From: Octopus vulgaris
Taxonomy: Eukaryota
Assembly: GCA_951406725.2 (NCBI GenBank)
Contig: OX597818.1
Span: 84,444,001-84,508,000 of the forward strand
Length of the DNA: 64,000 nt
Reading direction: 5' to 3'
Part shown: positions 50-61,151 of the stretch, one piece after another
How the letters are laid out: each line of letters starts with the position of its first letter
Numbering within the stretch: the first letter of the stretch is position 1
Made by a program: the position numbers and the translations under genes
The notes under the pieces: model-generated
Databases searched by the model: none
Told to the model about the DNA's origin: nothing
Seen by the model: only the letters and a program-made list of their open reading frames with translations

Positions 50-765
50 GAAATAAAGGGAGATCGCTAGTTACTCAAATTTTGAGCTAGGAAATTTATC
101 CTGTAACACCATTTTTAATTTCTCTAGCATTTAACAACATTTCGTGAGTATTATATAGTTTTTATACACCTTATATTTTAAATACAAACTATTTTTTCTT
201 CGAACACCGGAAATTATATCCCAACTAATTTAATTCCTAAATAACACCAATGATACTCATCCAATCTTTATTTACATTTTCCAATATAATTCTTGTATAT
301 TACACCCCTCACGACAAGCTACATCCGTCTTTCTACCACCTCACTCAGATAAACCTTTACAACTATAAATATAATACATTTTTTTTTTATGAATTTGATG
401 CTTTAGTAGCACTTTAACGTTCAATGTTAGCTTAATTTTAAACGATAAATTTCTAATCACATGAACTCTGCGTCTTTCGAAGTACTTTGTTTACATTTGT
501 AAATTCTTAAACACAGTCTTCAAATAAGTCATTTCGTAACTCAAGACTAAATTATACTTATTTTTTCCTGAAGATATCTAACAATATACCGCATATTACA
601 TCTTTAAAAGTTAAAATTATTGATGATTATTGATGATTCATTTATGCTTGTTCTTATAAGTGTATATTTTAGCCTTTTAATTTGCATTACTTTTCCTTTT
701 GTAATACAAATAAAATGAACCAAGCATCTTTTTAATTTTTCTTCTCCATTTTCTTTTACTGATTT
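50..765 (+). mobile_element. PLE pseudo-LTR-like repeat, copy 1 (family also at 29505-31697 and 33022-33826)
   Basis: Colinear with 33040-33826 (ctagttactca..ttttga.ctagg, ctgtaacacc, gtatattacaccc, aatacaaataaaatg, ttcttctccatttt). Retains hammerhead 5' core CTGAAGA at 568-574, but the GAAA half is deleted. Flanked by (TA)n. Confidence 0.65.
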
Positions 766-2819
766 TTTAATCATATATATATATATATATATATATATTG
801 TTATGTATGTATGTATGCATGTATGTATATATATATATATATATATATATATATATATATATGCATATATCTGTATATATATATATGTATGTGTATCTAT
901 ACGCGCGTGTATGCATATATATATATATATATATAATTAATTAATCAATTTTTGCAGGATCTATTTCAATCAAAGTATATTCTTTATGAGGCAAAACTTA
1001 AATGTTAAAAATTGGATTTAGATTTTTATTCACCCGAAGAAAATTTTTTTTTCTTTATAAAGTAATAAATTTGTTCCTCAATAAAAAAAAAACGCGTCCG
1101 AAACAGCTGTAGTGAATCTTAACTCATTTCTGTTCTTTCCTAAATGTGTGCGTGTGTGTATGTGTGTGTGTACACCCACACGCACATTTTTGATCCGCAC
1201 AAATATATTAATACCAAAAAGAATATACATAATAAACACACGTTAACCAACAGAAAATTTCAGGCGGGATCCGCGAAGAAGACACTTCGCGCTCTAACTC
1301 CTTATTTTACCATGTGAATACGGAACATAAAACGAGGTTCTGCGAAAACTTTCAAGGTATTCGGTCCATTGGTGTACCGTTTCTGCCAATAAATCTCATT
1401 CTTTGATTTAGAGAAATGTTTCTTTACATTTCGTACAATTTGCATAGAATCACTTAACCCAGTGGATTGCCTTAGCAGCATCAAATAATAAAAGCAACGG
1501 CAATTTTAATGTTGCAGAAACTCCGTGTGTTTTCAATCGGTAAGGCAAGTGTTGGTTCTATATAAGTGCATATATAAAAATACATGCATATACAAAAACG
1601 GTAAAGTATAAATGAACATATACATAAAACATACAGGCAAATATGTGTGTGTGTGTGTTTGTGTACGTGTGTTTGTATGCGTGTGTATATGTGTGTGCGT
1701 ATGTCTGTATATATACATGCATATATATATATATATATATATATATATATATATACATATATATATACAAACAGACATATATGTATACACACTTATATAT
1801 ATACACACACAAACATGCATATTCACATACATAAAATTATACACAAATATACATGTATACATTTATATACACATTCATACATATATATATATATATATAT
1901 ATATATATATATAGAGAGAGAGAGAGAGAGAGAGAGAGAGAGAGATATACATGCATGCATGCATACGTACATATGTGTGTGTGTGAATGTATGTAGTATG
2001 TGTGTGTATATATGTAAATATGCATGCATATATATTTATATATGTACGCACGCATATATGTACATACATAAACTCATACATTTATACCAATTCAAAAGTT
2101 ACGTGTGTGTGTGCGTGTACATATATATATATATATATATATGTGTGTGTGTGTGTGTGTGTGTGTGTGTGTGTGTATATATTCTCACTCTCAACCTCGC
2201 TACGCTACGCTCGGAACTTTCCGTTCAACTCAGTTTCCGGTGAATGATTTCTCGCTTGTTATCGTGAGAAAACCTGTTAAAATCTCTAGCCTTTGGATCC
2301 ATCATTCATCCTCCCAGCTTACCAGCATTGCTTCTTTTACAGAAGAATGGTTTAAAATGGCTGTACGATGGAGCTTGCGCAGGCTGGTGGAACTGGTATT
2401 TAAATGTAAAGATAACTTGGTCGAGGAATAAGTGCCTTGGAAATTTGTGTTGTGTTTTTTCCAATAACTATTCTCCCATCTTCTTCTGATAGTTATCGAC
2501 TTGCTGTTTCTATAATCACATATCGAGCATGTTTTTACAATCGTTTCTTAATGATTCGATAAGTACTTGACATCTTTGATCCATTCATTCATTTATCTAA
2601 TCCTTTATTCATTCTGTTATTTTTTATTCCGTTATTCATTCTTTCATTGTTTGCATGCTGGTTTGTGGCCACACGCTCCCATTCTGATGGTTTATTTAAT
2701 GTAATTTTATTTCATGCTTTCTCTAATGTTAGTTTATTTCTTGACATTTTTAACCTCCCACTTCTAACTACAATTAAAGGAAGACTTGAATGTCTTTTCG
2801 TTTATCCTTTTTTTAAAAT

Positions 2820-3233
2820 TGTATTTGTTTCAGTCTTCGAACTGTGGCCATATTGGAGTACCGCCTTGAAAGGTTTAGTACAAGAAACCCCCCCCCCCGC
2901 CTAACAAATCGACCTCAGGGCTTATTCTTTGTAAATCCAGTAGTTATTTTATCGGTCTCAATCTATCGATTGTCAAGCGATAGTGAAGGGACAAACAGAT
3001 ACAAAGCCACACGTTAATATATGTACATATATACATATATATATATATATATATATATATATATATATACGACAGGCTTATTTTAGTTTCCGTCTGTTAA
3101 ATCCACTCAGAAGGCTCAGGTCGGCCCAAGGCTATATTAGACGACACTTTCCCATGGTGCCACGCAGTGGGACTAAACCCAGAACCATGAGGTTTGGAAG
3201 CAAGCTTCTAACCACTTACCTAAGCCTGCGCCT
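2820..3233 (-). mobile_element. tRNA-derived SINE family A
   Basis: Reverse complement of the family A copy at 16874-17297 (gtgccacgcagtgggact, agacact, gtttcagtc). Confidence 0.85.
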
Positions 3234-3287
3234 CTATATATTGTAAATAGGTAGGGTAAAATTCCAGCTGATTCTACCGAACCAAAA

Positions 3288-3699
3288 GTGGATGTCTTGT
3301 TAGAAGGCTGAATACTGCGATATTAGACTTGAGAGATCTTCTCCTATAGGCGCATAGGGCGTAAAATCAGAGATATAAATCTTAGATGAGAATCTGCTGT
3401 TATGGGCGCTTTAGACTGCTAGATCACGTGATTTCAGTCAACTGAACTTCCTTCGTAGCAGGCGTCTGGTCACCGCATACCGTGGCAGTGTGGTTTGGCT
3501 GCTATCCGGTGACCAGACGCTTGTCACTGAGGAAGTCTAGGGACGTAAAATCACGACGTGATCTGGCAGTTCTAGTACCCATAACAAACGATTTTCGACC
3601 ACTATGATTTATGTCTCTTCATTTATGCACTATGCACCTATATGAGAGGGCCTCTCAAGGCTAATACAGTAGTATACAGCGTTCTAATAAGATATTCAC
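3288..3699. mobile_element. Foldback/MITE-like element with about 190-bp imperfect inverted arms
   Basis: Arms pair along their length: gtggatgtcttgttagaa / ttctaataagatattcac and gcgtctggtcaccg / cggtgaccagacgc. No ORF. Confidence 0.7.
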
Positions 3700-4021
3700 G
3701 TTAAGTCCTATATAAAGATAGCTCTTTGGTACTAGTATCGCTTCTATCGATAATTATATCATAATAAAAATAATAATCATACAACTCGTGCGCCACTCAA
3801 CATCTTCATGACTGCAAGCTTCAACTTCAAAGGAAGTCTACATCTGGCCTTCATTTCATACTATGCTTGTTGCTTTGTTGTCTTTGAAATAGCACGCAAA
3901 TCCGTCTGTCTGTCTATCTATCTATCTATCTATCTCTCTTTCTCTCTCTCTCTCTCTCTCTCTCTCTCTCTCTCTCTCTCTCTCTCTCTCTCTCTCTCTC
4001 TCTCTAAATATATATATATAT

Positions 4022-4224
4022 GATTATCGCGGGTGTTACGTTCCAAAACCGCACGCGAAATAGAAGCAGTACTGTACTGTACATTTTTTAATCATTTTTT
4101 ATAATTTGTATATATTTTATTATAAATGCACAACAACACCACAGAAGAATCGACGTAAGCTTGAATAATAAACCATGATTGGTAAACCGCGATAGATAAA
4201 TCGCGATATGGTGAGGGATTACTG
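4022..4224. mobile_element. Tigger/pogo-like MITE, left end truncated
   Basis: Right end cgcgatatggtgagggattactg reads CAGTAATCCCTC.. on the other strand, a pogo/Tigger-type TIR. Left end attatcgcgggtgttacgttcc matches the inner TIR. Confidence 0.6.
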
Positions 4225-4261
4225 TGTGATTGTGTGTGTGTATATATTTCAAAATGTGACC

Positions 4262-4465
4262 TCGTGTGTACCATCGGCAATTTTTTTTCCTCTGTCTTCC
4301 CTTCTCTCGATCTTTCCTTCTCCTATGTTTCCGACGAAGAGCTCCGCTCGAAATGTTAAACCCTCCTTCTTTCCTTCTTTCCTGAGCGTCCAATAATACT
4401 ATATTTGTTCCACGTCCTCGCGTTGTTGTGTTTTTTTGTGCTTTCTTGTTTGGATTAACTTTATA
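4262..4465 (+). mobile_element. Short PLE-derived repeat with decayed minimal hammerhead (4327-4361)
   Basis: GTTT-CCGACGA-A-GAGC/tcc/GCTC-GAAA-TGT-T-AAAC. Homologous to the minus-strand copy at 61028-61218. Ends in (TA)n. Confidence 0.7.
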
Positions 4466-60260: not shown

Positions 60261-60406
60261 GATATATATATATATATATATATATATATATATATATGCC
60301 ATATACGACTATGAGGATTTACCTTCCCAATGAAACTCGTTTTTTTCCAAAACTTTTTCTCAAACCTGCTATAATGTAATATATGTCTTTGGTGTGGTAA
60401 TTGTAC

Positions 60407-60493
60407 GCGGCTGAAGAAGGCTGTTGACCTACATGTTATATCAATTATGCATTGATATAAATTGTTCAATAAAGCCAGAAACATATGTACCGC
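60407..60493 (+). ncRNA. Type I hammerhead ribozyme candidate, intact core, extended stem II
   Basis: GCGG-CTGAAGA-A-GGCT..ttatatcaat/tatgc/attgatataa..AGCC-A-GAAA-CATATG-TA-CCGC. Downstream sequence resembles 34477-34519. Confidence 0.75.
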
Positions 60494-60581
60494 AAAATCC
60501 TTTGCATCTTGTTTTTCTTTTTGATAAATAAATAAATATATAAATAAATAAATAAATATATATATATATATATATATAAAG

Positions 60582-60905
60582 TCGCATGGCTCAGTGGTTG
60601 GAGCGTTGGGCTCACAATCATAAAGAAATGAGTTCGATTCCCGTACCGGGCTACGTTTTGTGTTCTTGAGCAAGACACTATATCTCCCGTTGTTCTAGTA
60701 CTTATCTCTAGAAATGTGTTGCGACGTCACTGGTGCCAATCTGTATCGGCCTTTGCCTTTTCCTTGGATAACATCGGTGGCATAGAGAGGGGAGACTGGT
60801 GTGCATGGGCGACTGCTGTCTTCCATAAAAACAACATTGCTCGGGCTTGTACCTCGGAAGTGAACATTATATGTGCAATCCCATGGTCATTTCCGACTGA
60901 AGATG
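60582..60905 (+). mobile_element. SINE family C-related copy
   Basis: cgcatggctcagtggttggagcg..gagttcgattcc..tgtgttcttgagcaagacac. Confidence 0.75.
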
Positions 60906-60907
60906 GT

Positions 60908-61020
60908 GGCTCGAAACGTTAAAGATTTTTTTCACTTATCGAGCGTTATACTAATACATTTGTTTGTTGTCTACACCAACTGTCTTCGTCTTTTGTCTTT
61001 TTTTGTGTGAATTCTCCCTA
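60908..61020 (+). mobile_element. 3' fragment of the 9395/44256 PLE-derived repeat
   Basis: ggctcgaaacgttaaag..actaatacatttgtttgttgt.tacacc..tcttcgtc. Confidence 0.7.
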
Positions 61021-61116
61021 TATATATAGTTAATCCAAACATGAAAACACAACAACGCGAGGACCTGAAACAAATATAGTATTATTGGACGCTCAGGAAG
61101 GAAGGAAAGAAGGAGG

Positions 61117-61151
61117 GTTTAACGTTTCGAGCGGAGCTCTTCGTCAGAAAC
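61117..61151 (-). ncRNA. Minimal type I hammerhead ribozyme candidate within a PLE-derived repeat (61028-61218)
   Basis: GTTT-CTGACGA-A-GAGC/tcc/GCTC-GAAA-CGT-T-AAAC. Palindromic AACGTT replaces stem III. Confidence 0.75.

Follow-up and report, generated by a model that had tools for sequence, protein, structure and literature searches.

We report on a set of hammerhead-like motifs in a stretch of 64,000 nucleotides of the Octopus vulgaris genome (assembly GCA_951406725.2, contig OX597818.1, positions 84,444,001 to 84,508,000 of the forward strand), here called the window, and on the Penelope-like elements (PLEs) whose pseudo-long terminal repeats (pLTRs) carry them. The role of hammerheads in endonuclease-bearing PLEs has been stated to be unclear (PMC8557442), and in a reconstituted system cutting was dispensable for insertion (PMC11167929); what is said of published work refers throughout to the portions of each source covered. 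An earlier reading made from the letters of the window alone, the sequence-only reading, had proposed that motifs from at least seven otherwise dissimilar repeat families share one hammerhead architecture, in which core positions 3 and 8 covary. In the present work we map these motifs, count their core variants across the genome and trace the elements from which they derive.

Hammerhead sites in the window

Mapping a motif catalogue back onto the window places 17 hammerhead-like sites there, from seven repeat families, F1 to F7. The sites and the features that accompany them are as follows.

34034..34111, minus strand: F1 hammerhead with C3-G8, a long loop II and CAUAUG in stem III; position 3 at 34107; stem I damaged by a 3-nt deletion
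34404..34476, plus strand: F1 hammerhead in the inverted arm of the fold-back element 34006-34529, cut within the core
60407..60493, plus strand: older F1-like hammerhead with C3-G8, CAUAUG and an A in place of C11.1; position 3 at 60411
29730..29825, minus strand: F2 hammerhead with C3-G8, a long loop II, CAUGUG and a damaged stem I; position 3 at 29822
33585..33680, plus strand: F2 hammerhead with copy-level A3, forming an inverted pair of ~490 bp with the 29822 copy
539..628, plus strand: F2 remnant with only the 5' core half; position 3 at 568
61117..61151, minus strand: F3 hammerhead, intact, with canonical CUGACGA and ACGU in stem III; position 3 at 61147
4327..4361, plus strand: F3 hammerhead of the C4 subfamily with a mutated stem III; position 3 at 4331
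58840..58877, plus strand: F4 hammerhead with a U3-A8 core, C13 and ACCGGU in stem III; position 3 at 58844
58697..58734, minus strand: second F4 hammerhead of this fold-back pair; position 3 at 58730
26731..27055, no strand assigned: fold-back insertion of F5 in (TA)n, made of two pLTR copies that meet at their 5' ends, the minus arm bearing a tail of ~60 nt
26859..26908, minus strand: F5 hammerhead with G3-C8 (GUGAACA), AAUAUU in stem III, U17, a stem I of 7 bp and a stem II of 5 bp; position 3 at 26901
26926..26975, plus strand: the other F5 hammerhead of this fold-back pair, bearing copy-level U4A; position 3 at 26933
35101..35136, minus strand: F6 hammerhead with ACCGGU, a copy with C3 opposite A8; position 3 at 35133
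35784..36004, minus strand: decayed C-terminus of a PLE endonuclease, lying upstream of the F6 hammerhead and sharing 44% identity with the F4 protein across 78 residues
36349..36361, plus strand: F6 3' half within the inverted arm
9494..9527, minus strand: F7 hammerhead with family-fixed U6 (CUGUCGA); position 3 at 9524
44325..44358, plus strand: F7 hammerhead (CUGUUGA); position 3 at 44328
60908..60925, plus strand: F7 remnant with only the 3' half

Both core halves are present at 13 of the 17 sites; the site at 34404 (+) is interrupted within the core, and those at 568 (+), 36349 (+) and 60908 (+) are half-motifs only. The proposed architecture is thus found in seven families, and the six sites singled out for their 3-8 pairs bear them as described: C3-G8 at 29822 (-), 34107 (-), 60411 (+) and 61147 (-), U3-A8 at 58844 (+) and G3-C8 at 26901 (-). 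Two details need amending. The range proposed by the sequence-only reading began at 568, where there is indeed a site, of which merely a 5' half-motif remains; and among the stem III inserts that it called palindromic, CATATG, ACGT, ACCGGT and AATATT are so, while CATGTG is self-complementary only by way of G-U pairs.

A strict descriptor, in which positions 3, 8 and 13 were left free, is passed by four sites (26901, 58730, 58844 and 61147), whereas 50 local dinucleotide shuffles averaged 0.14 passes, with one at most. The remaining nine of the 13 two-half sites fail it through copy-level damage, an irregular stem or a U6 core. The damage comprises A4 at 26933, A3 at 33588, C3 opposite A8 at 35133, a broken stem III at 4331, a broken stem I at 34107 and 29822, and the change of C11.1 to A at 60411; the sites at 9524 and 44328 are members of the U6 family F7. 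No Rfam hammerhead family occurs among the 150 of 272 window matches listed, nor among the six matches at E<=10 in 60300-61300, and Rfam microRNA matches in the window were set aside as fold-back and microsatellite artefacts.

By family majority, stems I and II enclose the core in the type I topology in F1, F3, F5, F6 and F7, and in the old family F2 stem II is irregular at its base. A short palindromic stem III closed by A15.1-U16.1 is common to all seven window families (with G-U in F2). The lowest-energy fold of a young F5 copy forms stems I and II, and that of F7 comes close to it.

Fixed core variants and exchange of the 3-8 pair

Pattern searches of the genome (2.8 Gb) were made with the tested positions set to N, and the letters found there were tallied by eye in the first 100 matches listed, which for each pattern come from the first one or two contigs. 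These were used for the counts instead of similarity searches, which return the best 40 copies with a bias towards the query: in such best-40 sets F3 is mostly U4, yet 70 of the first 100 pattern matches have C4. The F5 pattern has 8,105 genome matches (control 35), with G3 and C8 together in 91 of the first 100 and C3-G8 in none, and the F4 pattern has 903 (control 0), with U3-A8 in all of the first 100 and C13 in 96. Among 9,579 matches to the F3 pattern the first 100 have C3 in 99 and G8 in 94 cases; F7, with 18,214 matches, has U6 in 96 of 100, and F10, a sister family of F5 with 3,471 matches, has C9 in 95 and A9 in three. In F6 the majority form is U3-A8, U3 being present in five of seven copies and C3 in two, the 35133 copy included.

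The core CUGANGA/GAAA, or its U3-A8 form, is kept in F1, F2, F6 and the U4 part of F3, and departures from the canonical core distinguish F5 (G3-C8), F4 (C13), F7 (U6), the C4 part of F3, and F10 (C9). C4 marks a subfamily of F3 and does not reflect recurrent decay of CpG, because it travels together with other diagnostic bases. G3-C8, U3-A8, C4, U6, C9 and C13 are accordingly traits of families and not decay, and in view of this fixation the reversion of family majorities to CUGANGA/GAAA, which the sequence-only reading had named as grounds for giving up its proposal, is not what the genome holds. Essentially one uncompensated change is present per family, while G5, G12, A14, A15.1-U16.1, the pairing of 3 with 8 and stem II are kept. 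The F5 stretch also occurs in contigs of four sequencing runs from four organisms, in three of which the listed loose-end consensus has the G3-C8 core. A3-U8 was met only in low-complexity singletons and is not claimed as a variant. Four further families with U3-A8 motifs lie outside the window (L189, L191, L213, L128, L057).

It had further been suggested that a search requiring CUGANGA would miss several families, and this is borne out for F5, F7, F10, F4 and most of F3: some 8,000 motifs of F5, 18,000 of F7, 3,500 of F10 and 900 of F4 would be overlooked, together with about two thirds of the 9,600 of F3.

Covariation was examined in an unselected sample of 60 stretches of 10 kb, taken at round-number positions on 30 contigs (600 kb) and scanned with the same descriptor. 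It holds 16 matches, of which 11 have A13, and all 11 are paired at 3-8 (five C-G, four U-A and two G-C); the other five are non-A13, unpaired at 3-8, and low-complexity sequence or a decayed F5 copy. Eight shuffles of the sample gave a mean of 1.25 matches, none of them paired at 3-8. Collapsed to families, nine out of nine are paired (p=0.002, a value that overstates independence because the U-A families may share ancestry), and covariation above chance, as proposed earlier, is upheld.

Constraint within families was tested on incidentally met copies only, in F7 and F3. In 31 such copies of F7, position 7 is A in 11, U in nine, G in six and C in five, and it alone varies freely in the core, as expected for a catalytic fold. 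Polymorphic positions number 0 of 27 in the F7 fold and 7 of 30 elsewhere (p=0.008). This favours selection still acting on the F7 fold, whether or not it cuts.

Parent elements and the 5' boundary

The PLE association put forward by the sequence-only reading is confirmed for six of the seven window families (F1, F3, F4, F5, F6 and F7), whose motifs are located in the pLTRs of elements encoding a reverse transcriptase (RT) and a GIY-YIG endonuclease (EN). These are EN+ PLEs, with one open reading frame (ORF) that carries the RT and, at the C-terminus, a GIY-YIG domain, and their inserts have the hallmarks described for PLEs in PMC8557442, namely a 5'-truncated copy in inverted orientation, a tail on one end only and (TA)n targets. 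The F1 motif ends a young element with RT, GIY-YIG and a 3' region of 2 kb. The F4 motif lies ~850 nt after a frame of 581 residues that matches RVT_1 (Pfam), and that of F3 ~3 kb after a PLE frame, with C4 in both of the long copies seen. PLE-like protein matches lie upstream of F7 in six of 51 copies, a partial tandem being present at locus L413, and the F6 motif is downstream of the decayed endonuclease inside the window. The protein pieces of F1 and F7 match no Pfam family and were placed by motifs and BLAST.

The evidence is fullest for F5. Its GIY-YIG domain scores above the Pfam cut-off, and the G3-C8 motif lies 839-1141 nt downstream of the endonuclease at all 30 loci picked by the endonuclease. 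Of 150 scored matches for F5, 39 (the query among them) are 100% identical over 142 residues, which argues that a subfamily was recently active; pLTR copies picked by pattern are older, with a median identity of 88.5% to a young copy. A PLE endonuclease near the F5 copy L024 was considered as belonging to F5 and rejected, since it belongs to a different element.

The closest protein to that of F5 is F10 (54% identity over 742 residues), itself a very young family, with 100% identity in 22 of 150 scored matches and 99% in nearly all of the rest. Its motif can be aligned to that of F5, both having an extra G ahead of stem II, U17 and a five-pair stem II that differs between them by one exchanged pair, but its 3-8 pair is C3-G8. 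A tree of seven proteins, restricted to our own families and read only for short-range pairs because its long branches meet at the base, groups F5 with F10 (100/100), F4 with F9 (99/97) and F3 with F7 (100/100). F9, C3-G8 in both of two copies, is thus the sister of the U3-A8 family F4, and the contrasts F5 (G-C) with F10 (C-G) and F4 (U-A) with F9 (C-G) imply at least two separate paired changes at 3-8. A fold-back of the F10 3' end, without the motif, adjoins the F4 pair in the window at 58454-58595.

By motif only, F3, F4, F7 and F9 resemble the Neptune/Nematis type (a CX2-5CxxC linker and CCHH) and F1 the Hydra type. The F1 element (L151-L154) has the Hydra-clade motifs DKT and CxCX5C, lacks cysteines between GIY and YIG, and has a microsatellite-rich 3' region of 2 kb; in the literature covered, Mollusca are listed for the Hydra clade, octopus not by name. 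The F5/F10 protein has a CX3CxxC-type linker, DKS instead of DKG and a long RT insertion. In this protein (L423:1671-4745 (-) and L431) the spacing of RT motifs A and B is about twice the usual, and it has 66 relatives at E<=1e-30, one of them from a sea cucumber. Among named proteins, the one closest to one of the elements comes from Octopus vulgaris, and part of it has a 100% match in this genome, in keeping with an octopus host.

At L431, where the F5 pLTR is continuous with the ORF, position 3 lies 22 nt past the A of a word resembling TCAG (in this subfamily, TTAG), position 17 a further 35 nt beyond position 3, and an in-frame ATG follows position 3 by 92 nt; the tail falls within the first ~30 codons and codes for roughly residues 11 to 31. 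In sets that include loci chosen for their long form, 57 of 79 F4 copies start 47-64 nt before position 3 and 53 of 120 F5 copies start 19-29 nt before it, 21 more F5 alignments stopping at an indel. Short copies of F3 and F7 start near the TCAG word, and ahead of the F5 boundary stand a branch-point-like CTAAC and a stretch of pyrimidines, this upstream part having ~788 exact matches against ~8,105 for the core. Genome-wide, short copies of F3, F4, F5 and F7 start on a TCAG(A/T) word or only a few bases away from it, and we take this word to resemble the RNA polymerase II initiator consensus. By analogy with the Penelope element of D. virilis, whose internal promoter contains an initiator (PMC2377424), we infer that the 5' boundary is a transcription start.

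Known hammerheads and possible readings

Many features of these motifs recur in the minimal hammerheads of metazoan PLEs (PMC4209133): the type I layout in pLTRs, a short palindromic stem III, G10.1-C11.1, an additional base that often separates 9 from 10.1, the presence in each genome of many dissimilar families, copies that are mostly solo, inverted pairs, and covariation to U3-A8, the last in Cercyon of Schistosoma mansoni (Cervera and de la Pena 2014, PMC4209133). A short palindromic stem III and the PLE link are likewise shared with the small dimer-cleaving PLE hammerheads of Lunse, Weinberg and Breaker, as summarised in PMC6765202. Natural U3-A8 is also in Perreault et al. 2011 (PMC3088659), together with a slow change at position 6 (A6C) and a viroid U4C, and an U10.1-U11.1 mismatch is tolerated there. 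The novelty entertained by the sequence-only reading does not hold for PLE hammerheads as such, nor for U3-A8, since both have been published (PMC4209133, PMC3088659).

What differs is the set of core variants and their abundance. The covered portions of PMC4209133 include no cephalopod or octopus, and the representative motifs of its Fig. S3 have CUGA or UUGA, none of them G3-C8, C4, U6, C9 or C13 (the GAAA column was read separately, one row being AGAAA). The variants in PMC3088659 are rare single examples, whereas those described here are fixed in families of thousands, and the section of that paper covered makes no mention of G3-C8, A6U, A9C or A13C. In the literature searched, natural G3-C8 was not found and the pair appeared only in engineered form (PMC3884650, PMC11167929), the lists of Lunse et al. 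and the repeat databases lying outside this coverage; no paper on natural A6U appeared in the literature listing, no search having been made for natural A9C or A13C, and for octopus hammerheads the literature searched held nothing beyond a mention of Naiad. The novelty of natural G3-C8, U6, C9 and C13 is therefore likely but not established. These are well-supported PLE hammerheads of a mostly known kind, among which the natural G3-C8 swap in a recently active family is probably unreported.

The nearest functional model is the Poseidon element PAc of Anolis (Frangieh et al. 2024, PMC11167929), which shares with the octopus elements a motif at the junction of pLTR and ORF, an uncut RNA template, and a tail between two internal starts of reverse transcription, inside the 5' end of the ORF. 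There the double change C3G/G8C is an engineered partial rescue, whereas in octopus a young family, F5, naturally carries G3-C8, and the PAc ORF starts inside stem II, whereas the F5 ATG lies 92 nt after position 3. Cleavage by PAc requires the element's own protein, and uncut RNA is its main template (PMC11167929).

The best reading of the octopus motifs is a fold under selection, likely slow-cutting, located between transcription start and start codon. More fully, we think it probable, though by no means assured, that they are minimal type I hammerheads of PLE pLTRs whose 3-8 pair is swapped as a unit, and which act as slow, protein-assisted cutters that operate in dimeric form and that most template RNAs escape. 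Self-cutting is a prediction and is likely to be slow. As in the Anolis element, reverse transcription would start at internal sites, one at each end of the tail, and copy uncut RNA, and the solo and fold-back copies of ~200 bp would be complementary DNAs of the transcript's first ~200 nt, left uncut. A cut ~58 nt past the start would remove the capped leader or free unit-length RNA from tandem copies. Changes at A6, A9 and A13 are known from mutagenesis work to slow hammerheads strongly. Natural A6C has low activity and U4C lowers it (PMC3088659). Each family may tolerate or favour one weakening change of the core (G3-C8, U3-A8 with C13, C4, U6 or C9) with the fold kept, presumably because a fast ribozyme at this place would destroy the template of a successful family.

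A number of observations weigh against this reading. The nine families of the covariation test are not fully independent, as the U-A families may share an ancestor. Within-family constraint is not significant for F3 (incidental copies, p=0.35), and a broader pooled polymorphism test, partly circular in that it included copies chosen by pattern or similarity, is borderline for F5 (p=0.054) and gives nothing for F2 (p=0.78). Stem I of F4 is by majority 2 bp and a bulge (22 of 30 copies), the stem III insert of F10 is not self-complementary, the lowest-energy monomer folds of F1 and F4 contain no hammerhead, and a dimer with paired stem III formed in none of five co-folds, in which energy folding ignores tertiary contacts. 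F1 has no sharp 5' boundary (no peak of starts in 40 copies), and the F5 boundary also resembles a 3' splice site, which would offer an alternative to a transcription start. For F2, neither 12 copies nor five F2 regions yielded a parent ORF, the ORF beside one F2 copy having been rejected since it belongs to family F9. A simple conserved active ribozyme would in addition be hard to square with the fixation of C4, U6, C9 and C13, with the damage in most window copies, and with insertions that hold the motif whole, each one copied through an uncut motif.

Such uncompensated changes, fixed in young or abundant families, argue for weak or no activity, and they support the idea that the fold is kept for another job (protein binding, or a part in promoter or leader) or merely hitchhikes, the variants no longer cutting and the 3-8 swaps being older. 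In the first 100 matches listed for each spreading family, C4 is present in 70, U6 in 96, C9 in 95 and C13 in 96; mutating the hammerhead of the Anolis element leaves insertion in vitro unimpaired and RNA-seq found no ends at its cut site (PMC11167929), and Naiad PLEs spread without canonical hammerheads (PMC8557442). We nonetheless consider a complete loss of cutting unlikely, if worth serious thought, in that only one change is present per family with the remaining core, the 3-8 pairing and stem II intact, and that the sole freely varying core position in F7 is the one that a catalytic fold predicts. The opposite view, that all variants are efficient in vivo and cut tandem transcripts into unit-length RNAs that circularise and template new copies, follows a model proposed for PLE hammerheads in 2014 (PMC4209133), and partial tandems (F7 at L413, and the F5 pLTR running into the ORF at L431) agree with it, as do variably 5'-truncated F1 copies, which fit copying from the 3' end or from a circle. 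It is improbable in our judgement: most F4 and many F5 copies start at one boundary upstream of the motif, which speaks against circles because a circle has no such boundary, and metazoan minimal hammerheads cleave poorly in vitro (PMC4209133).

The sequence-only reading had also raised a retrozyme-like radiation, that is, non-coding tandem or dispersed elements with hammerheads of their own. Most copies are non-coding units of ~200 bp, animal non-LTR retrozymes are non-coding type I units reported to derive from PLE pLTRs (bioRxiv 10.64898/2026.07.22.740005), and some subfamilies of F3 or F7 might spread without an ORF of their own. Retrozymes are, however, defined in that preprint as tandem repeats, whereas the octopus copies are solo or fold-back, bear PLE tails and have coding parents; the same sequences serve as pLTRs of coding elements, head-to-tail hammerhead units without a coding parent are not what the window families present, and no hammerhead-bearing tandem array is present in the window among the first 150 of 192 rows. 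The coding parents together with the solo or inverted tailed copies identify the families as ordinary pLTR debris of many PLE families with autonomous parents, and a separate radiation is very unlikely. Least credible of all is that the variants are chance matches or single-copy mutations. Nine of 13 two-half sites in the window do fail the strict descriptor, and five of the 16 matches in the unselected sample are low-complexity or decayed and unpaired at 3-8; at the level of families, fixation across 900 to 18,000 genome matches with controls of 0 to 35, and shuffles giving 0.14 against four in the window and no paired match in 600 kb, refute it.

A bolder form of the slow-cutting reading can be put forward tentatively, as possible rather than probable: that a deliberately slow hammerhead has been selected in octopus PLEs as a timer which splits transcripts between translation, copying and destruction, the motif lying between the cap and the start of reverse transcription. 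Nearly every successful family would then retain the fold in full with a different weakening core change of its own (C4, U6, C9, C13, and in F5 the first natural G3-C8). If so, the genome would amount to a mutational scan of the hammerhead core that nature has already carried out in active elements. Since young, near-identical autonomous elements differ from the canonical core at defined positions, the function of PLE hammerheads becomes directly testable, and sister families supply the controls: F5 (G3-C8) with F10 (C3-G8), F3 (A6) with F7 (U6), and F4 (U3-A8 and C13) with F6 and F9. Cleavage rates of the variants would tell whether these ribozymes are tuned to be slow, dispensable or rescued by protein.

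Some other features of the window may be recorded. A unit of 385 bp is present twice head-to-tail at 44534-45303, the two copies 99% alike, with no hammerhead match in the scans made. A tRNA-like sequence under the Rfam threshold lies at 60587-60644 (+) and is probably the head of a tRNA-derived short interspersed nuclear element. Frames at 8144-8650 (-), 30132-30494 (+) and 23483-25507 resemble, by eye, decayed mariner-type transposase or long interspersed nuclear elements of the RTE type.

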